IMG/VR virus record: IMGVR_UViG_3300045988_172839
Coordinates: 96,001-160,000 of that record
DNA from: a virus
Length of the DNA: 64,000 bases
Reading direction: 5' to 3' (one strand)
Shown one piece after another: positions 1-64,000 of this stretch; the first letter of the stretch is position 1; the number at the start of each line of letters is the position of its first letter. The notes under the pieces were generated by a model that saw nothing but the letters and a program-made list of their open reading frames with translations, ran no database searches and was not told the origin of the DNA. Position numbers and translations under genes: made by a program.

Positions 1-62
1 AAATCATCTGACTGAGAATTTCCTTTTGGAAACTCAATCAGACCTACTAATTCTTTACTCAT
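1..62 (-). CDS. hypothetical protein, 5' fragment (gene continues past left edge)
   Basis: ATG at 62-60 with GAAGGA RBS upstream, 5 nt after the TAA of the preceding gene; frame MSKELVGLIEFPKGNSQSDD stays open to position 1. Confidence 0.45.
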   Translation of the reverse strand, partial: MSKELVGLIEFPKGNSQSDD

Positions 63-66
63 TCTT

Positions 67-966
67 TTATCCTTCTTCTGCTAATGAAACCTCAAATGCT
101 ACTGGGTCTAAGTCCATTGTAGGTTCTAATTCCTTGTAAGCCAAGTTGACAGTAGTTAAAATACCACCAATCTCTTTTTGAATAGTGAACTCATCACTAG
201 GAAATGCTAAACCTAGCTCAACCAAACGGTTATACATAGACACAATTTGCTCTTTGCACTCTTCAACCGTATTTCCTACAAAGTAAATGTTCTTTGTCTC
301 TGTATTTCTCATCCGAGAACGGTCTTGAACGACTAAATACACAGTAATTCCATTAGTTAGAACCACAGAGCGACCACCTAAATGGTCAGATACCCGTTTG
401 AGAGATACCGTTACAACCTCAGTTTCAATTCGGTATAGAAATTCCTCCGCAATCCAAAAATACTGCAGAACTGCACCTTCCATAATCTCGTCTTGACCTA
501 CATATTCAATCTGAGGGTCTGGGCTTTTATAACCATTGGGAATAAGAATGGCGCTTGCGCAAGCGATCAAGCGATACCCTTTAGGAGCTTTTACCGACTG
601 TAAATTCAACTTAGAATAAGCCAAATGACCTTTCTCACTAAACTCTTTCTTAGTTGAAATAAAAACAAACTCACATTCTTCTAACTCTTTAAATAAATTC
701 TCAGAGCTAAGTCCTTTAATTTTTACAAAGGAAAGCAATTCAGAACCTATCGGACTTTGAGTTAGCTCCAAGTGGTGCAGTCCAAAGACCGTTGGACTCA
801 TAGACTTAATATAAGCCATTGTTTGTTTGAACTCTCTCTCAAATACCTTATCCATAAAAGGAGACTGAGAGAAGTGAGGGGTAACTGAATATACCCCTAC
901 TTCCTCGAATTCAGCACTTACGTTAGGTGTATATGAGAACTGTTCCAAGTCTTCTTCCTCAAACAT
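67..966 (-). CDS. hypothetical protein (299 aa)
   Basis: uninterrupted ORF, ATG preceded by GAGAGG, tightly spaced and co-directional with neighbours; no motif I can name. Confidence 0.7.
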   Translation of the reverse strand: MFEEEDLEQFSYTPNVSAEFEEVGVYSVTPHFSQSPFMDKVFEREFKQTMAYIKSMSPTVFGLHHLELTQSPIGSELLSFVKIKGLSSENLFKELEECEFVFISTKKEFSEKGHLAYSKLNLQSVKAPKGYRLIACASAILIPNGYKSPDPQIEYVGQDEIMEGAVLQYFWIAEEFLYRIETEVVTVSLKRVSDHLGGRSVVLTNGITVYLVVQDRSRMRNTETKNIYFVGNTVEECKEQIVSMYNRLVELGLAFPSDEFTIQKEIGGILTTVNLAYKELEPTMDLDPVAFEVSLAEEG

Positions 967-983
967 ACTACAGACCTCTCAAC

Positions 984-1732: not shown

Positions 1733-1761
1733 AAAAAGAAAAGGCATCCGAAGTGGATACC
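1733..1761 (-). terminator. intrinsic terminator
   Basis: minus strand GGUAUCC-ACUUC-GGAUGCC hairpin followed by a T-rich run. Confidence 0.6.
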
Positions 1762-16844: not shown

Positions 16845-16870
16845 AAAAAGCACCCAACCGAAGTTGGATA
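16845..16870 (-). terminator. intrinsic terminator, UUCG loop
   Basis: minus strand AUCCAAC-UUCG-GUUGGGU then GCTTTTT. Confidence 0.65.
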
Positions 16871-16880
16871 CCTTTACCTA

Positions 16881-19980: not shown

Positions 19981-22900
19981 TTATAAACCAACCATATAAT
20001 CGCTATCTTCCATAGCTTCAACTTGACCGAGAAGATACCCATTCCCAACTTGCGAGAAGAAATCATGGTTGGAAGTACCCGTTGAAATACCATTCATAAT
20101 GATAGGGTTAACATCATCTGCTGAATCTGGGAAGAGTGGATCTTGTCCTAGGTTCATAAGAGCCTTATTGGCATTGTAACGAAGGAAAGTCTTCACTTCT
20201 TCTGTCCAACCAATTTCATCATATAACTCTTCTGTGTACCTCTCCTCATTTTCATACAGAGTGTAGAGCAAGTCGTACATCCACGCTTTTAATTCTTCTT
20301 GTTCTTCCTCAGATAGCTCATTAAAAGCGAGTTGGAACTTATAGCCAATATAAGTACCGTGAACACTATTTCCAGTTATAACTACAGAGCCACTTTGACT
20401 ACGAGTTACCAAATACCCTGAAGGAACTTGGATACCGTAAATCTGCTCACCTTCAAGCTCAGTTCGTGTCACCGCAGCACCATAACTAGTGGAACCATTA
20501 GGTAAAATAGTTAAAGAATAATTAACAAGACCCTCTGCACTAAATGGTGAACGATCTTCAAACTCTCTAATACGAGTTTTATAACCAATTAAACTACACA
20601 AGGCTTGCACATAATCTATACTCTCTTTATTTATAGAGCAATATCTATAAGAGTTATCACTACATTTAGCACCTACCCAATCAAACAGTGTTTCCAAATA
20701 TTGTAAGCACCATTTAAAGTCTACTTCATTCAAAGGGCGTTTAGGTAAAGACTTCAACTTACTCTCTTCGATACCGAATTGGTTAAATTTAGAAATACGG
20801 AGTACAGTTCCATTTCCTTCGGGATAAGAATATTCCTTGTAAGTTATATCTAAAGACTCCAACAAATCTTTCATCTTTGCAATAATCTCTGGTTTACTAC
20901 TGCTCAATACCAGATGTTTACTTAAAGCACTTTCTACTACCGTTCCAAATTTAGACAAACAAATATATAAATCTTCCCATTTAGATAAAGGTTCTACCTT
21001 AGAGTTTGGAGATAAAACCTCAGTAGGATGCAACCAATAAGAGCTACTACCTAAAGTTAAATCCGCTGGCCGAGTAATCAATTTATCACTAGTCAAAGCT
21101 TTACGAATAAGTCTGTGATTAGGTGTACATTTTAAATCAACATAACCAAGTTTAGACTTAAACTGATAAATCTTAGGTGCAAAATCCGTTGAAATCGTAG
21201 AAACTGGTGCAAAATTCGTTCTGCGAGTTTCTTTATCAAACTGCAAGACCAAGTCTTGTGGGCGAATATCGGCTACGGATACCCAACCTTTAGGTGTTAG
21301 CACCTCTTGGTCTTTTGTCATGCACTCATCTCGAATAATAAGCTTAATAATCTCAGCCACATTAGGGAGTTTGTTGTTTCCTAAGTACCATAAAGGTGTA
21401 AAGAAACCAGAGTAGAAAAGGAAAGACTCTAGGAAGACACTTGCTACTTTCTTTTGAAGTGGGGTTCCATTGTCATAAACCTCTTTGATAATCTCTGCTT
21501 TCTTCTGCAAATATGGGTTGTTGGCAGTCCACTCAAAAATTTCTTCAATCTCAGACTTGGTGTTCAATGTGGAGAATATTGAGGAGTAGGACTTGGCGTG
21601 GACACAGTTGCCTGAGATAATAGTTTTTCGACCTGCAGATACCACTAGAAACTGCGAGGGAACTTCAACACCATAGACTTCTTCACCTTCCAGTTTCTCA
21701 AACGATAAACTTTGAAGTTGGACATCACGTTGATTTTCAGATGATAAAATACGAACATAGTAATTATCACTATACTTTTCAGATCTATCATCTATGTTTA
21801 CACCTGAGTTATGAGTATAACCTGCTAAAGTGCTAAGAACTTTAACAAAATTCGCGTTTTCAATTTCTTTTGTATAATAAGAAATATAACCTCTTGAACC
21901 ATCTTCATTATAGTGAACATGAGAGTCCCATAAAGAAAGCTCTTCAATAAATTGCTGTGCTTTCTCTGCATTGAAATCAGAAAAAGAGAACCAATTATTT
22001 AACACTTTAGGTTTTAAGTTCAAAGAACCTAACATTGTAAAAGGTACAAATACATTAAAGTTCCTTTGTGGTTTACATTTACCTGAACCTAGTTTACCGT
22101 TAATTTCCTTATAAGATATACCCGAATCTTCGCATAACTTTAATAATTTTGCTATCTTGGGCTCTTTAGAAAAACTAAACCGAATAGTAAAAGTTTCAGT
22201 TTTTAAACGAGGATCCTTATCTCGATATTGTTGAATCCGTTTAATTTCCCTCTCAGTAATAGACCCATCTGCTTGGAAAGCAATCAATAACTTCTCAAAA
22301 GGAGTTAAAAGGGAAACTGAAGTTTGTGTAACAAAAGGTCTCACTAAAGGTACGCGTCGATAAGCAGTTTTAGGAAGTTTCACAAAATCCTCAGCAGTTA
22401 CAACTCCGTATTTATAAGACTTCCATGCATCTAATGGAGAACCGGATTTTAAAGAAGTCTCTTCAAAAAGCATGCGGTGTCCGGGAGATACCCTTAAATC
22501 TACTGCTGAATTATATATCCGCTCAATATGAGGTGCTTTGTGTTTAGATGTTTTTATAACCTTTTCAAACCTTGTAGTTTCTGTCTTTGGGTCATAAGCC
22601 AAAATAGTATCACCTTCAACAATATCCGCAATCGGAACCCAACCTCTATCAATCGTTAGAAGTTTATGGTCTTTCGTATAGCACTCCATAAACTCAATAT
22701 TGTTTAACACTGCTTCTTCATGCTGTGTACGAACATCTGGTTTAATTGCGGATACCCCGTCAACCGACTGCAACGTATCTAACAAGGTCAACCCACCAAA
22801 GACTTTAACTACTAAATCTCTTTCTTTTTCAGGCAACTTGCGCCAATCATCTAAATCATTAGACAAAGGAATACGAGTATCTAACCAAAATTGTTCAGTT

Positions 22901-23013
22901 AGTTTTTCCCAAGTTGCTTTATCAACTACGTCCTCAATGGCGTTCCAATTTATCGCCTTGTAAAAATCTGGTTCTTGTGTCAAATCCTTCTCACTTTCTA
23001 ATCGTAATCTCAT
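19981..23013 (-). CDS. nrdF: ribonucleotide reductase beta subunit (NrdF/R2) interrupted by two inteins
   Basis: exteins read ...KAINWNAIED..WLDTRIPLSND..GGLTLLDTLQ..NNIEFME | CVHAKSYSSIF...IIRDE | SVHGTYIGYKF...NHDFFSQVGNGY; both di-iron ExxH motifs are present once the inteins are removed; mature length about 332 aa. Confidence 0.85.
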   Translation of the reverse strand: MRLRLESEKDLTQEPDFYKAINWNAIEDVVDKATWEKLTEQFWLDTRIPLSNDLDDWRKLPEKERDLVVKVFGGLTLLDTLQSVDGVSAIKPDVRTQHEEAVLNNIEFMECYTKDHKLLTIDRGWVPIADIVEGDTILAYDPKTETTRFEKVIKTSKHKAPHIERIYNSAVDLRVSPGHRMLFEETSLKSGSPLDAWKSYKYGVVTAEDFVKLPKTAYRRVPLVRPFVTQTSVSLLTPFEKLLIAFQADGSITEREIKRIQQYRDKDPRLKTETFTIRFSFSKEPKIAKLLKLCEDSGISYKEINGKLGSGKCKPQRNFNVFVPFTMLGSLNLKPKVLNNWFSFSDFNAEKAQQFIEELSLWDSHVHYNEDGSRGYISYYTKEIENANFVKVLSTLAGYTHNSGVNIDDRSEKYSDNYYVRILSSENQRDVQLQSLSFEKLEGEEVYGVEVPSQFLVVSAGRKTIISGNCVHAKSYSSIFSTLNTKSEIEEIFEWTANNPYLQKKAEIIKEVYDNGTPLQKKVASVFLESFLFYSGFFTPLWYLGNNKLPNVAEIIKLIIRDECMTKDQEVLTPKGWVSVADIRPQDLVLQFDKETRRTNFAPVSTISTDFAPKIYQFKSKLGYVDLKCTPNHRLIRKALTSDKLITRPADLTLGSSSYWLHPTEVLSPNSKVEPLSKWEDLYICLSKFGTVVESALSKHLVLSSSKPEIIAKMKDLLESLDITYKEYSYPEGNGTVLRISKFNQFGIEESKLKSLPKRPLNEVDFKWCLQYLETLFDWVGAKCSDNSYRYCSINKESIDYVQALCSLIGYKTRIREFEDRSPFSAEGLVNYSLTILPNGSTSYGAAVTRTELEGEQIYGIQVPSGYLVTRSQSGSVVITGNSVHGTYIGYKFQLAFNELSEEEQEELKAWMYDLLYTLYENEERYTEELYDEIGWTEEVKTFLRYNANKALMNLGQDPLFPDSADDVNPIIMNGISTGTSNHDFFSQVGNGYLLGQVEAMEDSDYMVGL
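20368..21324 (-). mobile_element. intein 2 in nrdF (319 aa)
   Basis: starts CMTKDQEVLTPKGWVSVADI, ends ...TRSQSGSVVITGN, followed by the +1 Ser of SVHGTY; its termini resemble those of intein 1. Confidence 0.8.
21607..22683 (-). mobile_element. intein 1 in nrdF (359 aa, LAGLIDADG-type middle)
   Basis: starts CYTKDHKLLTIDRGWVPIADI, contains LLIAFQADGS, ends ...VVSAGRKTIISGN, followed by the +1 Cys of CVHAKSY. Confidence 0.8.
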
Positions 23014-23325: not shown

Positions 23326-24015
23326 CTACCTTTCTAACTCAATTACAAAGTCAGTTGAAGTTGAACCGAACCAACCGTAGACAGTTCTCTTACCTCTAAT
23401 ATCGCCTATTTTACCTATTGAGTCAGAACCATAATAGATAGTAAAGGGTTTAAACGCTTTAAGTGAACCTTTACGGTATTCTTTTGAACCGCTGCGAACC
23501 TCAGTAGTTAAACTATCAAAGTCTGGTCCTTTCCATCTAAGGTCTTCAGATTTTACTAAAACAATGAACGACTTGGTATCACCTAATAGTGGATCAGAAA
23601 GTTCCTTAGTCACACTACTATACGGAAAATCTTCAATCCGTTCATGATAATCTACGAGAACATGTTTATCAAAATTAAGAGTCTGATATAGGGAACTGAG
23701 AGCAATAATACTCATAAAAAGAAATACAAATTTATTCAACTTTACTAAATTGGAACCGAAATTTGAAGTAAATCCTATATACATTAAAACTAAAGCAAGT
23801 AAAACTACCCCTACAAAATAAAATGTAGCGTAAGACCCAAAAAATACATAAGGAACCATCAAAGGTAAAGATACCGCAAGTGTTATTAAACCTAAATAAA
23901 CCCATTTGTTAGAACTCTCTTTAAGTTGAGACCACAAATACTTTAAATCTTTAGGTTTTTCAGCAATTAGAACCGTGTCTACATGTTCAGTTGTTTCAAT
24001 CATTTTATCGCTCAT
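23326..24015 (-). CDS. membrane protein (229 aa)
   Basis: about four hydrophobic helices in residues 35-115 (WVYLGLITLAVSLPLMVPYVFFGSYATFYFVGVVLLALVLMYIGF...), soluble C-terminal half. Confidence 0.65.
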   Translation of the reverse strand: MSDKMIETTEHVDTVLIAEKPKDLKYLWSQLKESSNKWVYLGLITLAVSLPLMVPYVFFGSYATFYFVGVVLLALVLMYIGFTSNFGSNLVKLNKFVFLFMSIIALSSLYQTLNFDKHVLVDYHERIEDFPYSSVTKELSDPLLGDTKSFIVLVKSEDLRWKGPDFDSLTTEVRSGSKEYRKGSLKAFKPFTIYYGSDSIGKIGDIRGKRTVYGWFGSTSTDFVIELER

Positions 24016-29814: not shown

Positions 29815-30216
29815 TTAGTCCCCTCCGTTTGCACGCTCTTCTGCATTTGTTAAACTTGATCCAATTGTTTGTAGTTCATCTAAAGTTAAAGTTTCAAGCA
29901 AACTAAGTTTTGTTTTAACTAAAATAGTTCTTTTTAGCTTTCTTGTTAAGGCACTTATTTCAGCTTGTTCACGTGTTAAATGTAAGCAATAGTCTTTACT
30001 GTAGGCATCTGCAATCAATCCGTCCTCATAACGATACCGATTTTGGGAGCTTGTCGTTACATAAGTAGTTCCTACTTTTTCAACTACTTCCTCTTTTATT
30101 TTCCCTACGGTATCTACCATGTAAGCTGAAGATGCAGCGTTCTGCTCAATATAAACAGTCTGACCTACTTGAAAGTCTTTCTTTGTGTATTTCGCTTGTT
30201 TTTCTGACATAATCAA
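29815..30216 (-). CDS. hypothetical protein (133 aa)
   Basis: ORF behind promoter 30244-30272. Confidence 0.65.
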   Translation of the reverse strand: MIMSEKQAKYTKKDFQVGQTVYIEQNAASSAYMVDTVGKIKEEVVEKVGTTYVTTSSQNRYRYEDGLIADAYSKDYCLHLTREQAEISALTRKLKRTILVKTKLSLLETLTLDELQTIGSSLTNAEERANGGD

Positions 30217-33337: not shown

Positions 33338-34039
33338 TTACGCAATAAAATCAACTAACCAGTTTGAACGTAAGTAACTTACAAATTCAAAATCTGCAAT
33401 CAAATCAACATTCTCATAACACACCTTTAGTTTAGCTAAAAACCCGTCTAACTCTTCCAACGTAGGAAACCAAAGGAAACAGTTTAAATCATAATAATTA
33501 AACAATAGATTGACAAACAAAGTTGCAGTTCGCTTATTACAGTCATGGAAATATTGTCTTCGCATGAGAAAAAGATAAAACATTAAAATTTGCTCAATTT
33601 TTACATAACGACTGGTATCATCAGAACTTAGTATTTCTTGTACAAAAGACAATAAATCGTTAAATTCAGCTTGCGCTTCTTTTCGAGATACCGAAGGTGG
33701 TTGATAAGTTGTACCACTTATGTTTACTGGGAAATCCTCAGAACGGAAATGACCTTCTAGTTGAGGTTTGTCAGTAACTCCGTTTGAAATCAATTCATGT
33801 AAGTCCTCAATAGCAGTTATGCTCACATCAGAAGAACTAAAGAGATGTACAAAAACCCACGCTTCATAAAGGTTTAGAAGTTCTTTTCGGGTTTTGTAAC
33901 CAAAAGGAAAGGGCTCAAAATGAGTATTTACACATTGTTGGACTTCTTGCTTTGTTAAAACGTAATCTTCAAAGACAGTTGAATGAGCTACGATGTCCAG
34001 TAAATTATGTCCTAAGTAGTCTTGAAATAGAGTAGTCAT
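33338..34039 (-). CDS. Fic/Doc-like protein with a degenerate active-site motif
   Basis: QYFHDCNKRTATLFVNLL fits the Doc-type F.D.NKRTA core, but Gln occupies the position of the catalytic His; start ATG 34039 (MTTLFQDY) has a GAGGT RBS. Confidence 0.4.
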   Translation of the reverse strand: MTTLFQDYLGHNLLDIVAHSTVFEDYVLTKQEVQQCVNTHFEPFPFGYKTRKELLNLYEAWVFVHLFSSSDVSITAIEDLHELISNGVTDKPQLEGHFRSEDFPVNISGTTYQPPSVSRKEAQAEFNDLLSFVQEILSSDDTSRYVKIEQILMFYLFLMRRQYFHDCNKRTATLFVNLLFNYYDLNCFLWFPTLEELDGFLAKLKVCYENVDLIADFEFVSYLRSNWLVDFIA

Positions 34040-34888: not shown

Positions 34889-35617
34889 TTACTTTAAACC
34901 AACAACTTTCTTCGCTAGTTTATCGACTGTTTGGTTAATCTTCAAACCACGATGACCGCGCACCCAAATAAAGTCAATTTCCTCAATGCCACTTTCTTTT
35001 GCTTTTTGTAACAAGTAAGCGTGGTATTTCCCAACTGGTTTCTTCAAAGAGGTTCCCCAACAAGCCTGTTCGTTGACCTTGACAGTTTTAGGCGCAGCCC
35101 ACCTAAAGATACCCTCATAGTCGCAAACCACAGTTATCTTACTAAGTTGGCGCTTAATCGCATCTTCAATCGCTAAACCAAACCCACAAACTTCACCTGC
35201 TACATTTCTTGAAGTAGCGAAATTAGGTTTATTATTTGCGATGGCTTGAGCGTCTAACAAAACTCCATTTTCATAGCAAGCAAACGCTCCACCATAAGTT
35301 TGAGTTTGTGTATTGAAAGAACCGTCAATCGAGTACAGAATACCATCGATACCCCAAAGAAGTGGGTCAGAATCTTCTGCCATTTTGATAGTTCCTTTAA
35401 TTCCATTATCTGAGACATAAGGAACAATTTCAGAGGTTTTCTTCATGGACAAGATTGGTTCCTCACCTCTCAAATAAGCTTCAGCTTGTTCTCTTGTAGG
35501 AAAACTCTTGAACTCAATACCTTTTGTTCCTTTTACTACGTTTTCACAATCAGACCAATTTTCAAAGATTTGATTGGTGTTTCGGACTGCGTAATATTTC
35601 TTTTTCTTTTGTGTCAC
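34889..35617 (-). CDS. rnhA: ribonuclease H1 with N-terminal hybrid-binding domain
   Basis: KYYAVRNTNQIFENWSDCENVVKGTKGIEFKSFPTREQAEAYL is an HBD-type N-terminus; C-terminal VRGHRGLKINQTVDKLAKK is the RNase H H..G...N..aD.LA motif. Confidence 0.75.
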   Translation of the reverse strand: MTQKKKKYYAVRNTNQIFENWSDCENVVKGTKGIEFKSFPTREQAEAYLRGEEPILSMKKTSEIVPYVSDNGIKGTIKMAEDSDPLLWGIDGILYSIDGSFNTQTQTYGGAFACYENGVLLDAQAIANNKPNFATSRNVAGEVCGFGLAIEDAIKRQLSKITVVCDYEGIFRWAAPKTVKVNEQACWGTSLKKPVGKYHAYLLQKAKESGIEEIDFIWVRGHRGLKINQTVDKLAKKVVGLK

Positions 35618-41121: not shown

Positions 41122-41584
41122 ATCTTATCTCCTCAACTACATCAAAACCGAAACCCGAAGAACGAACACCTAAATTTAAGCACTCAACTTGTTTAAGGGT
41201 TGCTACATTTTCAACTAGAGAAGTTAAAATATGGTTTAAATCATAATCAAGTAAGTTGGGGAGGTAATACTCATTTGAAACACGCTTTCGTTTTCCTGTT
41301 TTAGTATTACATGACACACTTTCAAACGTACCTCTATCCAATTCCTTGTCGAAATAAATCAGTATTTCATGAATCAAGTCGGTATCTAAGTTTGTCTCAA
41401 TCGTGTTTTTCAAGAGTCTTAGTCGAAATACAGAATCTTTTAGTAGAATTTGAGTTTTATACCTGACTGAGACTTGGGATACCGAACTCATAGGTTTAAT
41501 TTCAGCACCACTTACAAGTAACTTAAACCCCTGATATAAATAGTACCAAAATTCTGTTGTCTGCTTGTTAGTTAATCTATTCAT
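41114..41584 (-). CDS. hypothetical protein (156 aa)
   Basis: ATG ORF in the same array; family membership uncertain. Confidence 0.55.
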   Translation of the reverse strand: MNRLTNKQTTEFWYYLYQGFKLLVSGAEIKPMSSVSQVSVRYKTQILLKDSVFRLRLLKNTIETNLDTDLIHEILIYFDKELDRGTFESVSCNTKTGKRKRVSNEYYLPNLLDYDLNHILTSLVENVATLKQVECLNLGVRSSGFGFDVVEEIRFE

Positions 41585-43503: not shown

Positions 43504-43908
43504 CTAATTTGTGTAAGCCAACAAAACCTTTAACCCTTTGATAAAGGCATCAACAAAGGCTACTGTAGGTATATTCTCTATGTAGTTGCGAATGATGGAT
43601 AACGAGAGGTTGTCATATCTTTCGTAAGGTATCCTATTAGAAATCTCTGTTTTAGGGTAACTATTGCTTGTAATGTACCAACCATTTAATCGCTCTACCT
43701 TGTAATCGTAAGCATTGAATGAAATACTATGTGATTTCTGTCCCATACGAACTACAATTCCTAAGTAAGTCCAAGGCGTATCTTGAACCTCAAAATAAGT
43801 ATTATCCGAAACTTTGAACAAACCATACACTTTAGCACCTGTGCTATGTAGCTGATGTAGCCGATACAGTAACTCTGCTAATAAATCTTTCTTTTCACCA
43901 ACAACCAT
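43504..43908 (-). CDS. small paralog family, group 3 member
   Basis: EKKDLLAELLYRLHQL N-terminus, VAFVDAFIKGLKVLL C-terminus. Confidence 0.6.
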   Translation of the reverse strand: MVVGEKKDLLAELLYRLHQLHSTGAKVYGLFKVSDNTYFEVQDTPWTYLGIVVRMGQKSHSISFNAYDYKVERLNGWYITSNSYPKTEISNRIPYERYDNLSLSIIRNYIENIPTVAFVDAFIKGLKVLLAYTN

Positions 43909-47237: not shown

Positions 47238-47257
47238 AAGTTAAACCTCTTATCTCT

Positions 47258-47701: not shown

Positions 47702-47704
47702 CTC

Positions 47705-48184: not shown

Positions 48185-48194
48185 ACTATAAACC

Positions 48195-48647: not shown

Positions 48648-48813
48648 CTTTACTACCCCACTAAATTTCAAGCTACAACAAGCAATCAAAACTTCAATTT
48701 AATTCAAATCTTATAAATCAAGTTTACTACAAAAATTGAAAAATTGCAAGGATTTCACATAAGAAATTTTGATTAATTTGACAAGAATAAAAACAAAACA
48801 AAGCAATATAAAA

Positions 48814-48837
48814 GAGCAGTATAAAATTATACCACTC
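48814..48837 (-). terminator. intrinsic terminator ending the FEN/methyltransferase operon
   Basis: GAGTGGTATA-attt-TATACTGCTC then TTTTATATT. Confidence 0.55.
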
Positions 48838-48859
48838 CATTATGTGTAAGTTCAAAATC

Positions 48860-49327
48860 TCAATCTTCTAAGTCTAAATCTTTGTCTTCTGGACCAAGAA
48901 TACCGTAAGAAAGTAGAGCTTGCATGTGGTTCTGTACAAAATCTCGAACTTGAGGATGTTCTCTCTCTATTTCTTCAAATTCTTGGAACTGTAAGCTTGT
49001 AAGCACTCTCTCCGTTACAATACGCATGAAATTGAAAAACAATTCCTTTGTGATTTCATCTTTTGATAGACCAAAAAATTCAAGAGACTTGTCTTTATCA
49101 AATAAACCGATACCTTGTTTCAATAGAAGTTCAAAAATTGGATATAAATTCTCCCTAGGAATAGCAACAAAAGAAGTAGCAGACAAAGTATCATCTTCTG
49201 TTCCAAACAAAGAAAGTTCAACCACACCTTCTAAAGTATCTTTCTTTTTCAAAATGCTTTGGTTGAACTTCATAAGGTTCTTCAACACCTTATCTCGAAC
49301 AGTATGTCCAATTTCCATTCTTTCCAT
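48860..49327 (-). CDS. acidic protein family member (155 aa)
   Basis: EREHPQVRDFVQNHMQALLSY matches IQEHPELVDFLDSHMSSMVY of 58332..58838; acidic tail. Confidence 0.65.
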   Translation of the reverse strand: MERMEIGHTVRDKVLKNLMKFNQSILKKKDTLEGVVELSLFGTEDDTLSATSFVAIPRENLYPIFELLLKQGIGLFDKDKSLEFFGLSKDEITKELFFNFMRIVTERVLTSLQFQEFEEIEREHPQVRDFVQNHMQALLSYGILGPEDKDLDLED

Positions 49328-49855
49328 CTATCTGTCTTCACTTTCTATTTCTTCCTGATGAGCTACTTGGATTTCTGGTAAAACTTGTGGATACCCTACA
49401 ACTTCTCCTATTCTTAAATTCGCAACTGCTTCGTGACCTTCTACCAATGCTTGTTTCTTTTGGTACTGCTTAATCTTCATAGCAGTTCTATAACATGTAC
49501 CGAAATAAAGCTCTACATAATCTAACAAGGACACATAAACCATGCGAACACACTCATCATCCTTACCACAAGAAACAGTCGAGTTCCTAAAAATAGACAT
49601 AGACTGCTGAAAACCTACTGGTAAGACAACACCATCTTCTATCTCTGGGTAAACTACCTCAAAAAGTAAATCAACTAAGTACGTTTTATTACCTTTAGTA
49701 TCTCTATCAACCACTTTCCAAAGTAACTTATGTTCAACTAAATAATCAAAAGTTTCTAATAGAGAGTGTCGATTAAACTGTCCCTTCTTAGACTTAAACT
49801 CTTCCACACTTAACGACCCGTTCGCTAAGTTTTTAAATTCAGTTAAAACAGTCAC
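49328..49855 (-). CDS. hypothetical protein (175 aa)
   Basis: ATG ORF abutting its neighbours. Confidence 0.6.
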   Translation of the reverse strand: MTVLTEFKNLANGSLSVEEFKSKKGQFNRHSLLETFDYLVEHKLLWKVVDRDTKGNKTYLVDLLFEVVYPEIEDGVVLPVGFQQSMSIFRNSTVSCGKDDECVRMVYVSLLDYVELYFGTCYRTAMKIKQYQKKQALVEGHEAVANLRIGEVVGYPQVLPEIQVAHQEEIESEDR

Positions 49856-49888
49856 ACCAACACCTACCTTTACTACTTTCTGTTAACT

Positions 49889-52114: not shown

Positions 52115-52118
52115 ATTG

Positions 52119-52337
52119 TTAGCTAATCTCCTTTGTGAACATACCGCGAACTCCATCAAATCGACTGCCGACATTAGGGTATACTGCTACCAAGATTGTG
52201 TTTTCCTTCAATTCATCACTCGGAAACCCTTTATCTTGTAATCTGTTATAAGTACCAAAGGACACTCGATCTACTACCGTAAAGTCGAAACCTTTCTCTT
52301 CACCCTCCATTGGAGAGAAAATTAGTGTATATTTCAA
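52119..52337 (-). CDS. hypothetical protein (72 aa)
   Basis: ATG ORF; its last codons carry the AAGGAG RBS for the methyltransferase start at 52114. Confidence 0.55.
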   Translation of the reverse strand: MKYTLIFSPMEGEEKGFDFTVVDRVSFGTYNRLQDKGFPSDELKENTILVAVYPNVGSRFDGVRGMFTKEIS

Positions 52338-52351: not shown

Positions 52352-53614
52352 TTAAATATGGATTTGGAACTTGAGAGCTTCAACAGTTAGTAAAGCTAAG
52401 TCCAACGGTGGAATGATATAATCAGCACCATATTCTAAAGGTTCTAACAGTCGATAAGGTTTTCTTCGGAGTTTTGGTTCGCGCATATTCAAGAAAGCTC
52501 CATTTAAGTTCATAGCTCTATATCTATCCTTAAACTGCTGACCTTCTTCCTCAGTTAAACCATGTTTCATCAAAACTGAAACCATTTGTTCAACCTTTTC
52601 AGTTGGTTCTTCAATCTTCACAAACCAATCTTTTGCTATAAACAAAGGAGAGAGACCTTCAGTTGAAAAAGGAACTTCGGCTAGACTAGGTAGAGTGTAT
52701 CTGTCAACTTGGCGCTTATACGGAAGTGTTGGATACCGCTTGCCTGTTGGCTTGTGTTCATAGAAGACTTCACAAGGTTCGTATCGAAACTCTTTGAAAT
52801 CCTCTTCCTCTGCGACTTTCTGTAATAAGTCAACCAAGCGTTTTGGTTTTCGATAGAACCCTTTCATACAAGGAATTGTATCAGAACTATCCCCACGGAT
52901 AATCTTAGTTGCTAACAAAGTGTTATAGTCTGCAAACCCACCTAACTTCTTAACAGAAGACTTACGCTCTAACATACGTTTATAAGTGCGAGGAGTAATT
53001 TGCTCGTAGTTGTTGAGTTCGGGATACCCTTGCTCTGAGTAAGTTTGAGTTGCTGGGTACATATAAACAGACACTTGTTCATCAACCAAAGGAATCATAT
53101 CCAAATCACCTGTCAACACACAAATTGGGTTATTTGGGTACTGAATTTTAGCAACTCTCACCGCTTCTGCAATCAAATCATCTGCTTCGTAATTGTCTTT
53201 CTTCAAAACACAAACACCAATTTTCTTCAGCAAAGTTAAACACAACTCTGCTGAGTTCCACCAATCTGGTGCTAACTTCGGACGACCTGATTTATAAGTT
53301 CCACCTTTACCCTCACGTTTCAATAAATCTTTCATATACTCTTTGCGAGACCAAATCTTAGAGTCAGCACAAACCACCATAGGGTTATATCCTGCTCCTG
53401 AAAGTCTGTTCGCAAAGAACTTCAACATTGCAGACAATACCGTAGTATCTACTACAACTGTTTCTGTATAAACAGACCCCATAGAGTCTAATCTCTCAAC
53501 TTCTACCTCCGCAGACAAAGTGACACCTTTGGCACGCATTCCTTGGAAATACTTATGGACTAAGTGGTTGAAATCCACCACCCATACGATTTTGGACATA
53601 TCTAAGTTATTCAT
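52352..53614 (-). CDS. 5'-3' exonuclease / flap endonuclease (PIN-like plus H3TH)
   Basis: VWVVDFNHLVHKYF, NYEADDLIAEAV, LTGDLDMIPLV and IIRGDSSDTIPCMKGF match conserved FEN / Pol I 5'-exonuclease blocks. Confidence 0.7.
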   Translation of the reverse strand: MNNLDMSKIVWVVDFNHLVHKYFQGMRAKGVTLSAEVEVERLDSMGSVYTETVVVDTTVLSAMLKFFANRLSGAGYNPMVVCADSKIWSRKEYMKDLLKREGKGGTYKSGRPKLAPDWWNSAELCLTLLKKIGVCVLKKDNYEADDLIAEAVRVAKIQYPNNPICVLTGDLDMIPLVDEQVSVYMYPATQTYSEQGYPELNNYEQITPRTYKRMLERKSSVKKLGGFADYNTLLATKIIRGDSSDTIPCMKGFYRKPKRLVDLLQKVAEEEDFKEFRYEPCEVFYEHKPTGKRYPTLPYKRQVDRYTLPSLAEVPFSTEGLSPLFIAKDWFVKIEEPTEKVEQMVSVLMKHGLTEEEGQQFKDRYRAMNLNGAFLNMREPKLRRKPYRLLEPLEYGADYIIPPLDLALLTVEALKFQIHI

Positions 53615-53706: not shown

Positions 53707-53719
53707 GTCGGATACCACT

Positions 53720-57234: not shown

Positions 57235-57343
57235 ATGAATTAGAGGATACCGCTAGGTAAAGAAAAAGAAAGCACATTAGACTATTACGCGCTTTCTCTT
57301 CTGAATTATGGGGTGTACAAGCTGTTGCAAGTACATGGGTAAG

Positions 57344-58924: not shown

Positions 58925-59077
58925 TCCGTCAGCATTTAAAAGGAATTTCTAAATAAAAACCAAAAAATGAAAATTACCAATAAGCTAATTAAAGCCCCTT
59001 TTGTGTGGTCTTGCAAAGAAGACCACCAACGTTTGAAAAATCGAATCATCTTAAGGATACCCAACCTTTCTAACTAC

Positions 59078-59509: not shown

Positions 59510-61372
59510 TTAATCCTCCAACTCAGCTTTCTTACGAGCTTCAAGCTCTTCTTTCGCCAAACGCTCAAGGGCTTTTTGGTCTGCTTGGGCTTTATTTTCT
59601 ACAAGTTTCTTCGTATTGCGCTCCATCTTACGTCCATACTGGTCGTAAATTTCATCCCCTAAAGCATTGATATAAACTGCTTCAAACTTGTGGTTAAAGG
59701 TCTTGCCCCACATCAAGTTCAAAGTCTTAGTTTCCTTAGTATTAAACCAATCGACCATCTCTGCAGTTCCACGTGCAGCAATTTTAGCACGTTCTTGGAG
59801 ACCATACATGTTGCCCGTTCTGTTAATTAAGTTTTGTTCTGGGTCGGCTAACGTAAACTCAGAATCAACCTCAATTTCTTTATCAGACAAGTTTTCTACT
59901 TGGAAGTGAACAGTACCTAAAACCAAATCAGAAACATTGGTAAAGCCTTTGTTCTTATCGTTAAAGGTTTGAACATCTTTAATAGCTTCATCACCCACTA
60001 ACACCTTAGTTACAGTTACTCGAACATCTTGGTAATTACCTGACGTGTCTTGCATTTTTGTAACAAACGGTGTGCCTAAAGTGACTGGATCATCATACTT
60101 TCCTGAACCGATATGAACATTGGTACTTTTCGCATCGCTTTCTTTACTTGCAATGTAAGTGGATCCGACCCACCCATAGGAAACAACTTTATCGAGGTTT
60201 TTCTCACCATTAGCATAAGTGTAAGGACTAGGCTCAACTTTTTTCAGCTCAAGCCATGAAGATACCGCACTATCGTAAGTTGGATTGTCTAACTTATCGA
60301 AAGTATTAGGGTTTTCAACATTTACTTGCTCTGTAGTACCCTTATCTGTTTTCTTGGTTTGTTTTACTTCACGTGCTTTCAAACCAAGGTAAGGGCGCAA
60401 GTTGTTGATATAAGTTGATAACTCTCTCTCTCTGGCAGACCACTCAGAATGAGCCTTACTTTCACTCTTTTCTCCGTAGCTATCCTCAGTTACACCCACA
60501 AAGAAATCTTGTGAAGTGTGCAATTTCTCAGCACTAAAGACTTCTTTATCAAGTGTAGTTGTGAACTCAGCAGTGAGCTTGTTGTCTGAGGATACCGCTC
60601 CTGCAACTTCAGTTGTTTTGTAAGGTTTTGGAATATCAGAACCTTGCATATATGAAGCTACATAAGCGTTTTTGTACTCTAACATATCTGCTAAATTTTG
60701 TGCGATATACTTAGCGTAAGCGTCTACTAAATCGTCTTTGTAAGTATAAGAGTCTTTCTTTAAGTCTTTTGTTAAAGCCTTGATTTTATCATGGTCTACA
60801 TGTTTTACAACCCAACCGACATATTCCCAGTTGGGAGACTTAATCGTAGCGTCAGAACCGTTTAATTCAACGGTTACTGCTTTAGAGACTGCACCTACAA
60901 AGTCAGTGCGTGAGGTGTTGGTGCTTACATAGGTCAAATTCAAATCCCATAAGGAAACACCGTTTGTCTCAGAAGTATCTGAAATCTCAGCCAAAGAAAA
61001 CTGTGATACACCACTTGAAATCTTATCTTGCAAATCCTTCAAAGCATCTTCTTTTGCTTTCTTTTCAATCGCTACCTTTTGGTTATGCTTATATACCAAA
61101 GTCGAACCCGCACCAATGATACCGAGAGTTGCTAGAACACCTAATGTTATCCACAACTTTTTATAGGACTTCTTAGGGGGTTCTTGTTGAGGGTTTTTAA
61201 AAGGTAAACCTCCACCTTGGTTAAAGTTAGAATTAAACCCACCACCTTGGAAACCGCCCTGAGAGGGTTGTTGACCTCCAAAACCACCTTGGGAGTTAGA
61301 ACCAAAGGAGCCGTTCCCTTTAGAGTTCGAACTAGAAGAACCCGAACCAAATAAATCTACTTGATCACTCAT
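59510..61372 (-). CDS. single-pass membrane protein with G/S/Q/N-rich N-terminus and large extracytoplasmic domain (620 aa)
   Basis: low-complexity GSGSSSSNSKGNGSFGSNSQGGFGGQQ, TM helix LWITLGVLATLGIIGAGSTLVY, about 520 aa outside; no family call. Confidence 0.6.
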   Translation of the reverse strand: MSDQVDLFGSGSSSSNSKGNGSFGSNSQGGFGGQQPSQGGFQGGGFNSNFNQGGGLPFKNPQQEPPKKSYKKLWITLGVLATLGIIGAGSTLVYKHNQKVAIEKKAKEDALKDLQDKISSGVSQFSLAEISDTSETNGVSLWDLNLTYVSTNTSRTDFVGAVSKAVTVELNGSDATIKSPNWEYVGWVVKHVDHDKIKALTKDLKKDSYTYKDDLVDAYAKYIAQNLADMLEYKNAYVASYMQGSDIPKPYKTTEVAGAVSSDNKLTAEFTTTLDKEVFSAEKLHTSQDFFVGVTEDSYGEKSESKAHSEWSARERELSTYINNLRPYLGLKAREVKQTKKTDKGTTEQVNVENPNTFDKLDNPTYDSAVSSWLELKKVEPSPYTYANGEKNLDKVVSYGWVGSTYIASKESDAKSTNVHIGSGKYDDPVTLGTPFVTKMQDTSGNYQDVRVTVTKVLVGDEAIKDVQTFNDKNKGFTNVSDLVLGTVHFQVENLSDKEIEVDSEFTLADPEQNLINRTGNMYGLQERAKIAARGTAEMVDWFNTKETKTLNLMWGKTFNHKFEAVYINALGDEIYDQYGRKMERNTKKLVENKAQADQKALERLAKEELEARKKAELED

Positions 61373-61390: not shown

Positions 61391-62200
61391 CTAATATCCA
61401 AATGCGTCCATTAGAGCTGATGTATTTACTAGAGGGTCAATTTGAGACTCAGTTGAAGAAACCTCTTCTGAATTAGTAGATACAGCTTGCGTAGGTTCTT
61501 CTACTAATTCAGTTAGTTTCTCATCTTTTTCTACAACCTCATTTTGAGGCTCTGTCGCGCCCTCTGGTGCATTTTCTTGCTCTTGGGGTGTACTTGTATT
61601 CTCAATCGTCTCAACTGCAACTAATGGCTCTGTGGGAGCTTCTGATATAGGTTGTTCAACACCTAAATTATTAGACTTAGTAGATAGAATTTCATGAACC
61701 ATACTTGCTACCAAATCTTTTAAATCCATAGGATTTACAGTTTGACCAACCTCAGAAAGTGTTGATACCCATTGAGGTGTATGTTCTCCCTCACTAGTGT
61801 TATTTGTAGTTGAACCTTTCTCAACTAGTTCCAAACCTAAATCATCTAGCAAATCTAACAAAGCCGATTTAACATCAACCAAAGGCATATCAAGACCACC
61901 AAAGTGCTTAATTTCAGCACTTCGAAGAGTGGATACCCAATCTGCAAAAGGTTCTTCAATCTTTAAGGCTAACCACTTCTCATACAAATTTGCTTGAATG
62001 GTAGACTGCTGCAAGTCATTATAAGCCACAGACTGGTCAGACAAACCAAGCAAGAACTGAGTGGTGGAGACCCTATCTTGAAGCAAAGCATTTAACAACA
62101 ACGAAATATAACTACTTAATTTCTTCTCTGTACGGAGGACTCCAACCAAGTTTGATTGTTCCTCAGTTACACGTACAGACAACGTTTCTCTCAAACTCAA
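61391..62200 (-). CDS. ribbon-helix-helix-like N-terminus, acidic C-terminal tail
   Basis: probable TTG start at 62200 overlapping the upstream TGA (ATTTGA), with AGAGGAGGTG RBS; LSVRVTEEQSNLVGVLRTEKKLSSYISLLLNALL fits the RHH (CopG/ParG-like) beta-alpha-alpha pattern. Confidence 0.45.
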   Translation of the reverse strand: MSLRETLSVRVTEEQSNLVGVLRTEKKLSSYISLLLNALLQDRVSTTQFLLGLSDQSVAYNDLQQSTIQANLYEKWLALKIEEPFADWVSTLRSAEIKHFGGLDMPLVDVKSALLDLLDDLGLELVEKGSTTNNTSEGEHTPQWVSTLSEVGQTVNPMDLKDLVASMVHEILSTKSNNLGVEQPISEAPTEPLVAVETIENTSTPQEQENAPEGATEPQNEVVEKDEKLTELVEEPTQAVSTNSEEVSSTESQIDPLVNTSALMDAFGY

Positions 62201-63591
62201 ATCGACACCTCCTCTACAAAACCTTCGTGTTGTCGAACCACACGTGACCAAGAACGCTCACTCAATGGACTACCTGAACGCAAGACCTTTGCTTGTTTAT
62301 CCAAACGACTTAGAAACTCAAAGACACCTCGGTTTGTTTCCAAACCCAAGTACAAAACAACTGGACGATTTAGACGAGCTAAATCATCAAACTTACGTTC
62401 CCAATCCACTTCTGACAAAACATTTACTGGAAGTAATGCGTTTGGAGAAGTCAACAAGTCAAGACCGTCAGCTACTCTCAGTTTAATCTCATCATAAGGA
62501 GAATAAAGAGAACGAATGTTTTGCTCTCCTAACAACCACTTAGCCACACGGTTGCGCTTAGTGATACGAACTAAAGTATCCATAATACTCTCTGGAGACA
62601 AGTCAATCACAAGAGTGTCTTTCATGTTTACTAACAGGTATTGGTAAGACGGAACTAAATCTAAACTGGAAGCCGTCACATAAATTTCTACATTCCTTGG
62701 AACACTCAAAGGAGTTGTTGGAACAACTGCACTCTCTTTAAGTTTCGCTTTCAAGTCCTCATTTGCAACCTCTAACTTAGCAAACTCTATCTTCTTGTTA
62801 TCAAAATCAGTCTCAACTAACTGCAAAGTCTCTTTAGTACGATTATGTGAGTTACGCTCATTTTCAAGTTCTGCTTTAGTTAAATCCAAGTCCTCTTTCA
62901 AATTTTGAAGTTGCTCTGAGGATACCCCTAAACCTTGATTTGTGTTAGCAGTTTTCAAATCTCTACGCAAGCGCTCATTATCCGCCCGCAAGAATTGAAC
63001 CTCATCTTCAAGAGTGAGACCAAACCCATCATCTACTGGTAAAGGAGTCTCTTCTTGAATTGGTTCAACCAAAGGGGTTTCTTCTACTTGTGTAAAACCA
63101 CTAGAAGGTTCAACTGTTTCCATTTTGGAAACAACTGGAGTTGCCCCATATTGTGGGGTTAGTGGGGATACCGCTTGAGAATGTGGAGAGTAAGTTGTGT
63201 TCTCCTTATTTAGTTGAGCGTTTTGTGTTGGTGGAGTTGGAGTTGGAGGAGGTGCGACCTCCTCTTTCTTAGGTGGAGCCGTTAAAGACTCCCCTAATTC
63301 GCTCTCCAGCAACAATATCAATTCATCCGCAGTTGTAATCACGTGCGCTCTGTCTGGTCCCACCGTGTCGCGCACTGTAGCATTTGCATCTAATTTAACC
63401 TTTTCATCAGCAGTTAATAAGAACCCTGCCGTGCTAATTTTCTTAGCGTGACTTCTTGCTGATAAAGGTTGAAACTTTGAACCTCCTGAAACAAATCGAA
63501 TATCCGTTCTATGCGCTCTGAGAAGTAAATTCTCAACCTCTGAAATAATCGACTTGCTCAGTTCAAAGTAGTAATAGTCAAAATCTGACAT
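62197..63591 (-). CDS. hypothetical protein (464 aa) with Pro-rich linker and coiled coil
   Basis: ATG with GAGGT RBS; PPKKEEVAPPPTPTPPTQ linker; coiled-coil segment RLRRDLKTA...KAKLKES. Confidence 0.6.
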   Translation of the reverse strand: MSDFDYYYFELSKSIISEVENLLLRAHRTDIRFVSGGSKFQPLSARSHAKKISTAGFLLTADEKVKLDANATVRDTVGPDRAHVITTADELILLLESELGESLTAPPKKEEVAPPPTPTPPTQNAQLNKENTTYSPHSQAVSPLTPQYGATPVVSKMETVEPSSGFTQVEETPLVEPIQEETPLPVDDGFGLTLEDEVQFLRADNERLRRDLKTANTNQGLGVSSEQLQNLKEDLDLTKAELENERNSHNRTKETLQLVETDFDNKKIEFAKLEVANEDLKAKLKESAVVPTTPLSVPRNVEIYVTASSLDLVPSYQYLLVNMKDTLVIDLSPESIMDTLVRITKRNRVAKWLLGEQNIRSLYSPYDEIKLRVADGLDLLTSPNALLPVNVLSEVDWERKFDDLARLNRPVVLYLGLETNRGVFEFLSRLDKQAKVLRSGSPLSERSWSRVVRQHEGFVEEVSI

Positions 63592-63627
63592 GTTTCTACC
63601 TCATCAAATTCTATTTACCCTATTTTA

Positions 63628-64000
63628 TTAAGCTTTTTGAGTCTTTTGTGCCAATGAAAAGGCAGTCATCAATCCTAAAATGTTCAAGTAACGTGGGCTT
63701 GTAAGGTCAAACGGGATACCCTCAATCTCTGGTTCTTCAAGGTATTGCAAGTCTACTAAGTCCAATGTTGGGAGTTCGAGTTGCAATTCAGACAAGAGCG
63801 CTTCAGAAATAGTGACTGTTGAACCGTTTGGAACAACACCACCTCCTACAAGTAAAAGACGGTCAAATGAAGAAACCTCTACTTCTGCTCCTCGCAAGTA
63901 AGTAAATACTTCTTGTGCAATATCGGATGCTACCGAATAAATCGCTTGTTCGACATCTTCTCGAACTTTGTGAGTTGTTGAACCATAGCGTACTTCACAC
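63628..64000 (-). CDS. actin-like ATPase (ParM/Alp-type), C-terminal part; gene continues past right edge
   Basis: the frame is open from the window edge: ..VREDVEQAIYSVASDIAQEVFTYLRGAEVEVSSFDRLLLVGGGVVPNG...SPRYLNILGLM, resembling the C-terminal ...d.i.l.GGGa... and ..aNa.G. blocks of ParM-like proteins; the track start (63897) is an internal TTG. Confidence 0.45.
   Translation of the reverse strand, partial: CEVRYGSTTHKVREDVEQAIYSVASDIAQEVFTYLRGAEVEVSSFDRLLLVGGGVVPNGSTVTISEALLSELQLELPTLDLVDLQYLEEPEIEGIPFDLTSPRYLNILGLMTAFSLAQKTQKA

Follow-up and report, generated by a model that had tools for sequence, protein, structure and literature searches.

A strand-locked and evenly spaced GGTA-core word, possibly a priming signal, in a pXO16-like giant element from the human mouth

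The stretch of DNA analyzed here—64,000 nucleotides, referred to in full as the window, at positions 96,001 to 160,000 of the virus record IMGVR_UViG_3300045988_172839—raises the question of why a single hexamer should recur throughout it, and almost always on the same strand. By exact count 5'-GATACC-3' occurs 112 times on the plus strand across positions 1..64000, and 5'-GGTATC-3' only five times on that strand, at 23575..23580, 30109..30114, 33614..33619, 41381..41386, and 43628..43633. A preliminary description of the window had put these figures at about 110 and 3, so that the first count and all eight of the positions offered there as examples were right, whereas the second was too low. 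All 90 of the credible open reading frames (ORFs), which occupy 93% of the window, lie on the minus strand, as had been described, and the coding strand therefore bears the GGTATC form. Among the hexamers of the window GATACC ranks first in strand asymmetry and has the highest z value under an order-3 Markov model (19.4, at 112 copies versus 21.6 expected). When 17 kb of flanking sequence was added, the two orientations stood at 148:5 over 81 kb, uniformly per 10 kb and at the same density in both flanks.

A strand asymmetry of this kind might be spurious, inasmuch as the placement of all genes on one strand, together with a strong G/C skew, will inflate the asymmetries of many words; two kinds of codon shuffle bear on this point. 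The 107 copies of GGTATC inside ORFs compare with 23.1 ± 4.5 when synonymous codons were shuffled within genes (at the most 46 in 300 shuffles) and with 11.6 ± 3.5 when the codon order was shuffled, while none of the 18 one-mismatch variants of GGTATC was enriched in the window. These copies are distributed over the three codon phases as 41/27/39, are uniform along the ORFs, and show no relation to start or stop codons in the window; the other five are intergenic, and in all five the coding strand reads GGTATCC. The flanks of GATACC are likewise biased, the 5' base being G in 47 of the 112 copies and the 3' base C or G in 91 and T in three, with the second 3' base almost never G and the third A or T in 93, which preferences extend the coding-strand consensus to W-D-S-GGTATC-(C). 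The preliminary description had already pointed to the three phases, the intergenic copies, and the bias of the flanks, and had suggested that the selection was exerted at the nucleic-acid level; the shuffles bear out that suggestion, so that selection on the word acts at the nucleic acid and not at the codons or peptides. The reverse orientation, with five copies in the window versus 6.8–7.2 expected from the shuffles, is not depleted, and the asymmetry is therefore wholly an enrichment of one strand. The orientation avoidance of type III restriction sites, of the T7/EcoP15I type, is a different pattern: there one orientation is lost and the other is not enriched, whereas here the favored orientation is enriched 5- to 10-fold and the other stands at expectation.

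The copies are, moreover, regularly placed. Their mean spacing in the window is 570 bp, with 1973 bp as the largest gap, and the coefficient of variation (CV) of the spacing is 0.56 versus 0.99 ± 0.09 for random placement, none of 5000 simulations having fallen below 0.70; control hexamers of similar abundance in the window gave a CV of 0.91–1.43. Gaps shorter than 200 bp number 7 versus 33 expected, and gaps longer than 1.5 kb number 1 versus 8. This regularity in base pairs disregards gene boundaries—23 short ORFs contain no copy of GGTATC at all—and results in an even coverage on the scale of Okazaki fragments.

As to the replicon that carries the word, the window is part of a giant element from a human oral metagenome whose length is at least 239 kb, with a guanine-plus-cytosine (GC) content of 35.9% in the window; independent assemblies of that element (ENA ERZ989710 k127_74389; JGI Ga0557493_021747) end at 238,470 and 238,733 bp, suggesting that these are complete genomes, and in the longer of the two the window occupies ~106–170 kb. 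Megablast of window segments against phage and plasmid collections gave no match; and a search at the protein level returned as annotated relatives only pXO16, the 350-kb plasmids of B. thuringiensis (sv. israelensis), and no phage. The window and pXO16 both have a ParM-like gene followed by three conserved genes in the same order, in which syntenic block the window encodes on the minus strand a 620-amino-acid protein (59510..61372), used below as a family marker and 33–44% identical to WP_000841051 of pXO16, and a 464-amino-acid protein (62197..63591) whose pXO16 homologue lies at 311076–312827; a 5'-3' exonuclease, a DUF1002 protein, and one further protein are also common to the two. pXO16 resembles the window, in addition, in its LPXTG surface proteins, its runs of small ORFs, its single gene orientation, and a polar GGTA-core motif of the same density; it differs in the host genus, in that the few shared proteins are only 26–44% identical, in its dialect of the word (WGGGGTAK versus SGGTATC(C) in the window), and in the fact that part of its copies double as ribosome-binding sites. 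The small-ORF runs are long series of back-to-back reading frames of ~135–175 amino acids without a Pfam match, located at ~40200–50000 of the window and at 1–22900 of pXO16; many paralogues are mentioned in the pXO16 literature. Syntenic core genes, a single gene orientation, and a polar GGTA-core motif being the marks by which we recognize a pXO16-like element, and all three being present in the window, the latter is part of a distantly related pXO16-like giant element, plasmid-type in nature, of oral bacteria. Of the alternatives implied in the preliminary description, which had spoken of a virion or plasmid and of a T5-style genome, the plasmid is thus retained. A streptococcal host is likely on the basis of the gene content, such as the LPXTG adhesins and the S. 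sanguinis-like exteins of NrdF.

pXO16 is the only fully sequenced and studied member of the family that we found. We had also considered the name Inocle, which designates giant extrachromosomal elements of oral Streptococcus with an InoC marker gene, a length of 293–395 kb, ~313 ORFs, a GC content of ~32% (24% in one taxon), and ORFs whose orientation switches at the origin and the terminus (PMC12340149); that label was withdrawn, since upon a comparison by description only the GC content of 35.9%, the 90 ORFs in 64 kb, and the size of our element fit it poorly. The contigs of the family fall into size classes, one very prevalent helicase type being found at 170–180 kb and another at 213–248 kb, and the marker protein of the window type on contigs of 238–281 kb; the family consists of giant (roughly 170–440 kb), plasmid-like elements of the Firmicutes with genes in one orientation.

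If the word belonged to the element rather than to this particular window, its relatives should carry it. pXO16 contains GGGGTA 658 times on the coding strand versus five on the other, with the consensus (A/T)GGGGTA(G/T), and has 13–26 copies in every 10 kb around the whole 350-kb circle; inside ORFs there are 494 copies versus 114 ± 9 upon the synonymous shuffle, while the reverse orientation, with 5 copies versus 4.8 expected, is again not depleted. The spacing CV in pXO16 is 0.71, and its largest gap, 2071 bp, is below that of all 5000 simulations. Further relatives were retrieved either by the 620-amino-acid marker protein (94–47% identity) or by the DnaB-like helicase of the pXO16 type. 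The former keep GGTATC or GGGTAT(C), with counts in the two orientations of 40:1 in locus L002, 29:5 in L011, 44:1 in L012, and 44:0 in L013, in which last GGGTATC alone reaches 36:0, as does GGGTAT in L014. Among the latter, GGGGTA stands at 53:2 in L100, 31:1 in L101, and 56:1 in L102; L096 mixes the dialects (GGGGTA 39:0, GGGTAT 50:0, GGTATC 36:3), L153 and L154 use GGGTATC together with GGGTACT, and L146 uses GGGTATT (38:0). A scan of public metagenomes with the helicase alignment yielded 78 loci on contigs of up to 360 kb, of which we analyzed the 57 of at least 12 kb: in these the coding is essentially all on one strand, and in most of them a GGGTA-core word is the top-scoring hexamer, typically at 30–60 copies versus 0–3. 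Some 60 metagenomic relatives in all bear strand-locked words with a GGGTA core. The words of the family slide along a common core—GGGGTA, GGGTAT, GGTATC, with GGGGTATC as their union and GGTA as the invariant part—and a polar GGTA-core word is a trait of the family, kept even between elements with helicases that are only about 30% identical.

The sites are also conserved individually. Between elements at 74% nucleotide identity a fraction of 0.44–0.58 of the sites is kept, and at 69% identity 0.38, versus 0.22 and 0.17 for arbitrary hexamers; at 54% identity the conservation of positions is gone, and the density of the motif is maintained or even higher. Individual sites are thus under purifying selection with a long-term turnover, which turnover at a preserved density, along with the even spacing, indicates a selection for coverage—that is, for never being far from a site—and not for particular regulatory positions.

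Whether the word might instead be imposed by the host, or by the mere architecture of the replicon, was examined with three controls. In 80 chromosomal loci of oral Streptococcus (1.49 Mb, 1.24 Mb of it coding), retrieved with the S. sanguinis NrdF sequence of the PDB alignment as query—an earlier scan of the genome collection with the C-terminus of the adhesin had given no relatives—GGTATC occurred on the coding strands 466 times versus 442 expected, or at 0.376 per kb with a strand ratio of 2.2:1, compared to 1.75 per kb and 22:1 in the window. In the first 50 kb of pBTHD789-2, a plasmid from the same host as pXO16 and with all genes in one orientation, GGGGTA occurred 7 times versus 6.2 expected, compared to ~94 per 50 kb in pXO16. 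The third control, a 216-kb plasmid of B. velezensis (NZ_CP076292.1) with nearly unidirectional genes and a strong G skew, had no strand-locked enriched word; in its region 13221–54573 the gene for a DnaB-like helicase directly precedes that for a CHC2 zinc-finger protein, and the region also holds a large DNA polymerase and genes of the type of the cyclic-oligonucleotide-based antiphage signaling system (SAVED, DncV-like). The motif is therefore neither a by-product of codons or skew nor imposed by the host, and we infer that it is read by a protein encoded in the element itself. According to the preliminary description, similar counts in codon-preserving shuffles or the same enrichment in the coding strands of the host would have made the motif a compositional or codon-pair effect; neither was found. 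The recurrence of the same pattern in many independent assemblies and in finished pXO16 records speaks in the same sense, and we leave practically no weight to an artefact of composition, codon pairs, or assembly, which origin is refuted by the shuffles, the Markov model, the one-mismatch words, and the host, same-host-plasmid, and skewed-plasmid controls alike: composition, skew, and codon usage are excluded as the source of the motif.

How such a site may be acquired is illustrated by nrdF (19981..23013, minus strand), which gene, according to Pfam and the PDB alignment, encodes the beta subunit of a class Ib ribonucleotide reductase and is split by two inteins. The NrdF exteins are ~85–90% identical to S. 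sanguinis NrdF (PDB 4n83), as read off the printed alignment, and contain two of the seven motif copies of the gene. One of these (20034–20039) is made by the synonymous choice GGG-TAT-CTT for a conserved Gly-Tyr-Leu, which combination is present in none of 80 host genes, GGTATC being wholly absent from 63 of them; the acquired nrdF thus gained a motif site through a synonymous change. One of the two NrdF inteins has a LAGLIDADG domain, and a third intein is located in the C5 methyltransferase at 50951–52174. The motif is found at normal density within all three—the limits of the NrdF inteins having been set by Pfam and the PDB alignment, and the placement in the methylase intein by arithmetic on the motif positions—as well as inside an adhesin gene, and in these respects the preliminary description was accurate.

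The next question is at what level the word is read. It lies on the sense strand of the genes in every locus that we examined, so that it might be a signal in the transcript (GGUAUC or GGGGUA in the mRNA, acting in its processing, its stability, or an interaction with the ribosome) or an element of the non-template DNA recognized by RNA polymerase or an elongation factor along the extended arrays of co-directional genes; and because motif and genes are co-oriented everywhere, transcription and replication are inseparable in these data. A search for reversed genes that might separate the polarity of the replicon from the sense of the mRNA gave nearly all spurious candidates and a single plausible gene, which was free of the motif. 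In pXO16, ~90–100 of the 658 copies, in the form AGGGGTA, stand 3–8 nt upstream of start codons (~15% of the copies), so that the word is a Shine–Dalgarno variant for roughly a fifth of the pXO16 genes; and the density is 3.5 per kb outside ORFs versus 1.6 inside, a twofold difference that would favor a role in the transcript. The same may be said of two window copies that, as had been noticed earlier, form terminator stems: terminator-like hairpins followed by a U-run are present on the minus strand at 1743..1761 (–12.4 kcal/mol, z –3.7), with the motif at 1756–1761 as the 5' arm, and at 16847..16874 (–16.8 kcal/mol, z –3.7), with the motif at 16867–16872 within the 5' arm. In both hairpins the 3' arm pairs through G.U (GGAUGCC and GUUGGGUGC), so that the coding strand does not acquire the reverse word GAUACC; two cases being few, and the reverse orientation undepleted overall, this pairing may be due to chance. 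Against a signal in the transcript, the Shine–Dalgarno sequence of the window is GAGGT, and GGTATC neither resembles it nor has a comparable association with start codons; the independence of starts and stops, the uniformity along the ORFs, the spacing that is regular whatever the gene boundaries, and the copy-free short ORFs point in the same direction. Of three intergenic copies at 53711..53716, 57246..57251, and 59056..59061 (plus strand; GGTATCC on the coding strand), the first, furthermore, follows the U-tract of a terminator hairpin at a distance of 3 nt, and we know of no mechanism that would need an RNA hexamer every 0.5 kb. A transcript-level or transcription-coupled signal is hence in our judgment unlikely, if still to be reckoned with.

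A polar word could, alternatively, orient a translocase on double-stranded DNA, as do the FtsK-orienting polar sequences (KOPS) and the SpoIIIE recognition sequences (SRS), for the purpose of segregation or transfer. Such sequences are short, G-rich, and skewed to the leading strand, and co-evolve with their reader (GGGNAGGG, GAGNAGGG, GAAGAAG); their skew is 0.79–0.91, their frequency 1 per 12–22 kb, and they converge at dif (PMC3384302). pXO16 does encode a protein with an FtsK/SpoIIIE domain, although Pfam detected only the ATPase domain in it and no gamma domain. Around the pXO16 circle neither the polarity of the motif nor the sign of the GC skew ever switches, and no polarity switch was seen in the 81 kb of the window element or in the 57 family loci either; the relatives thus exhibit the strand-locked words, though not the switch, for which the preliminary description had looked to them. 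A single orientation around a circle leaves no point of convergence toward which to pump; the motif is 20–40 times denser than KOPS (1 per 0.5 kb versus 1 per 12–22 kb), the non-permissive orientation is not depleted, and pXO16 transfers single-stranded DNA. A translocase-orienting signal, which had figured among the earlier suggestions, is for these reasons very unlikely.

We regard as equally improbable a strand-specific nicking or base modification at the word, by a T5-like nickase or a non-palindromic methyltransferase. The nicks of some phages are confined to one strand; and enzymes that might be invoked are at hand, since the genes of the window include at least five for C5 DNA methyltransferases and one for an N6/N4 enzyme (among others, C5 and N6/N4 genes at 30601–31719, 42497–43093, 49889–50845, 50951–52174, and 32119–32943), and pXO16 has genes for HNH and GIY-YIG nucleases. 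A target of that nature would, however, need neither enrichment nor even spacing, and a stable low-copy replicon that was nicked every 0.57 kb would have one of its strands in fragments. The nick sites described in phages range from a handful to about a dozen per genome, and T5-type interruptions at 112 sites in 64 kb are implausible; the T5-style nickase proposed earlier is accordingly disfavored. In the window, palindromic restriction-type sites are strongly avoided: GATC occurs 41 times versus 157 expected, and GAGCTC (0), CAATTG (1), GATATC (1), TCTAGA (1), AGTACT (2), and GAATTC (2) occur in the numbers given versus 9–22 expected for each, which avoidance, along with the methyltransferases, looks like an anti-restriction strategy.

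The reading that we place first, if only tentatively and at well short of even confidence, takes the motif for a priming signal, distributed along the element, that serves discontinuous DNA synthesis and is read by the element's own primase-helicase; among the mechanisms listed in the preliminary description, a primase or replisome site is the one that fits best. The reader would be a replisome of the family, in which a DnaB-like helicase acts together with a DnaG-type primase that is split into a CHC2 zinc-ribbon protein and a Toprim protein, and the motif would mark the starts of RNA primers on the strand that is copied discontinuously: the lagging-strand template when vegetative replication proceeds unidirectionally and possibly, in conjugation, the single strand received by the recipient as well. 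GGTATC/GATACC would then be the version of the window lineage of a polar DNA signal common to the family. In DNA of 36% GC a 6–7-nt site arises by chance about once per 3–5 kb; since chance sites are too rare, selection would have installed one roughly every 0.5 kb, with gaps of no more than ~2 kb and largely by synonymous changes, while sites on the other template, being unused, would be expected to show no depletion, as was in fact seen. In a broader and somewhat more doubtful form of this proposal, the family would have a private "priming code" of 6–7 nt, with Okazaki-type starts only at a strand-locked word about every 500 bp and with the complementary-strand synthesis that follows conjugative entry possibly primed at the same word, whose dialect would drift between lineages from GGGGTA to GGGTAT to GGTATC.

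Candidates for such a machinery are encoded in pXO16, whose phage-like replication set comprises a family-A polymerase with a 3'-5' exonuclease domain, gyrase, an NAD-dependent ligase, a DnaB-like helicase (WP_001162832), a stand-alone DnaG-type CHC2 zinc ribbon of 190 amino acids (WP_000365721), and a separate 261-amino-acid Toprim protein (WP_000389279) with a match to the catalytic region of phage primases. Metagenomic loci show the gene order gyrB-gyrA-helicase...zinc ribbon again, and homologues of the zinc ribbon are present in 47 of the 57 long helicase loci. The conserved gene that comes after the zinc ribbon was considered as the missing catalytic domain of the primase and rejected, with a weak RuvC-like match as the only hit and an empty PDB profile search. 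From the window itself, and as context, come two genes on the minus strand for enzymes of lagging-strand processing and RNA-primer removal, respectively: a FEN-type 5'-3' exonuclease (52352..53614), with a homologue in pXO16, and an RNase H1 (34889..35617). That homologue is the coding sequence at 295021–296208 of NC_018516.1, annotated as 'potassium transporter TrkH' and 35% identical to the window exonuclease (E 1e-50), so that the annotation is probably erroneous.

A primase is the inferred reader; the strand that it would read and the direction in which replication would proceed are likewise conjectural. The zinc-binding domain of a primase sets its template specificity, 5'-(Y)CCC-3' is a known class of template, and in C. 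difficile the strand bias of the initiation trinucleotides mirrors the GC skew (PMC5204125). The C-rich form of the family word, 5'-TACCCC-3' or 5'-GATACC(C/G)-3', contains CC(C/G) and conforms to the rule for bacterial DnaG, which calls for pyrimidines at the first two positions of the template; in the coding-strand form there is a GTA, which resembles only the G-T-N sites of T7. This fit constitutes weak evidence, because both strands can be made to conform. A replication running in the direction of transcription would make the coding strand the lagging-strand template; were it the C-rich strand that is read, the process concerned might be the synthesis of the complementary strand on the conjugatively transferred strand. 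Priming on that strand would matter in pXO16, which is conjugative, has all its coding sequences in one orientation, transfers single-stranded DNA, and mobilizes other plasmids in dependence on a correctly oriented single-strand origin (PMC6199540).

Several results weigh against a priming signal, and account for the reserve with which we propose it. The pentamers of the T7 primase, taken as a positive control, exhibited neither a strand lock nor a clear enrichment in T7 (GGGTC 39:55, TGGTC 79:62, GTGTC 43:42). The most strand-asymmetric pentamers of T7 (NC_001604) are GCTGG, TGGTG, TGCTG, and CTGGT, at ~110:25 each, which we take to be fragments of the Chi octamer of E. coli, GCTGGTGG. DnaB, CHC2, and a large polymerase are not sufficient for the motif, since the B. 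velezensis plasmid has those genes and no strand-locked word. No helicase or primase of the window's own lineage was found in the 81 kb available of the ~239 kb, and the S-GGTATC dialect of the window was present in none of the 57 helicase loci. The assignment of helicase/primase loci to the window lineage was rejected because the dialects differ: CGGTATC occurs ~4–9 times per 10 kb in the extended window versus 1–2 times per 21 kb in those loci, where GGGGTA is ~4 times denser. At the His/Lys position, known to tune the specificity of the zinc-binding domain, the zinc ribbons vary (G, V, A, K, R, T) without any correspondence to the dialect of the word. A requirement of 6–7 nt is, to our knowledge, longer than any characterized primase site. 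The GC skew may reflect a transcription that is 100% co-oriented, and hence be no guide to the direction of replication; for the C-rich strand to be the lagging-strand template, replication would have to run head-on to transcription, unless that strand is the transferred one; and the ~15% of pXO16 copies that serve as Shine–Dalgarno sequences have, for their part, a role at the transcript level.

In yet another reading the word would act as a Chi does, attenuating or redirecting a helicase-nuclease encoded by the element; linear or broken intermediates of replication or transfer would thereby be protected, and recombinational repair promoted. Like Chi, the motif is polar and lies on the G-rich, presumably leading strand, with the reverse orientation undepleted; the family has UvrD-like and SNF2 helicases—both present in pXO16—and exonucleases; and only one kind of DNA end would be exposed if replication were unidirectional or of the sigma type. 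A short Chi can, moreover, be frequent in Firmicutes, that of B. subtilis being the 5-mer AGCGG. A Chi-like signal had been among the earlier suggestions; the Chi of the host is nevertheless excluded by the Streptococcus chromosomes, which are not enriched in the word, and neither the annotation of pXO16 nor the loci examined showed a protein of the AddAB/RecBCD type. The even spacing, the deficit of short gaps, and a strand lock of 96–99% are, as far as we know, beyond what has been described for Chi, and a Chi-like signal is in consequence decidedly unlikely. The readings set out here take up the greater part of our confidence, and we reserve the remainder for mechanisms that we have not thought of.

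The remaining features of the window concern the motif less directly. The genes include those for LPXTG adhesins, one of the antigen I/II family, and for a dihydrofolate reductase. The gene for the 620-amino-acid marker protein lies next to the ParM-like partition gene. At its N-terminus the protein is disordered and rich in Gly, Ser, and Phe, and a long hydrophobic helix (residues ~89–124) comes next; the AlphaFold model is poor, with a predicted local distance difference test score of 51.5. The protein is probably membrane-anchored according to these predictions, and for that reason would be an unlikely reader of the motif.

With respect to precedent, no description of the pattern came up in full-text literature searches, which covered the four words, pXO16 in combination with motif or strand, and polar motifs of megaplasmids, the 2015 paper on the pXO16 sequence being outside their scope; nor is the motif mentioned in the Inocle paper (PMC12340149) or in the pXO16 review (PMC6199540). 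The word affords a simple sequence signature by which a largely uncharacterized family of giant elements can be recognized in metagenomes. That family is prevalent in human-associated samples, some of its helicase and marker-protein clusters having hundreds of members, and its sources include metagenomes of the human mouth and gut, as well as Bacillus. The word also offers a testable handle on the poorly understood replication and transfer of 200–400-kb plasmids such as pXO16; and since pXO16 is in culture and conjugative, and its Bacillus host cultivable, the idea can be tested at the bench now. Should the priming proposal prove correct, the template specificity of an enzyme would be capable of reshaping the choice of synonymous codons across a whole replicon, this would be the first replicon in which the specificity of the resident primase has left a visible, genome-wide mark on the coding sequence, and the element would have gained a built-in means of telling its own DNA from that of the host.

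Compared with the systems to which it might be related, the proposed arrangement resembles that of the gp4 protein of T7 in that a replisome encoded by the element itself (PolA-type polymerase, DnaB-family helicase, zinc-ribbon primase) would need a word in the template, and differs in that the primase of the family is split into a zinc-ribbon and a Toprim protein. In T7, 5'-GGGTC-3' templates the primer pppACCC, with the 3' C left uncopied; by analogy, 5'-GGGTA-3' would template the same primer, again with one 3' base uncopied. With Chi the family word has in common that it is a polar word on the presumed leading strand whose reverse orientation is tolerated, and it differs in not being the word of the host and in that no enzyme of the AddAB/RecBCD type was found. 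KOPS and SRS are likewise short, over-represented words of the G-rich strand; the skew of the family word is 0.96–0.99. The DnaG of C. difficile (5'-CCC/CTA-3') offers a likeness in that its word is a template word for discontinuous synthesis with a replication-linked strand bias, and in that the preferred 5'-(Y)CCC-3' is contained in the C-rich-strand form of the family; its word, however, has 3 nt, a modest bias, and a chromosomal location (PMC5204125), whereas the family word has 6–7 nt, is exact, 96–99% strand-locked, enriched 5- to 10-fold, evenly spaced, and private to a family of plasmids. The known polar words—Chi, KOPS, the trinucleotides of primases—are found on chromosomes, have a modest skew, and are read by the host. 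In kind, then, the word described here is one of these polar skewed words; its novelty, as far as we have checked, is a matter of degree, and what stands out is the strand lock of 96–99%, the density of one copy per 0.5 kb, the regular spacing, the restriction to a mobile family, and the division into dialects.

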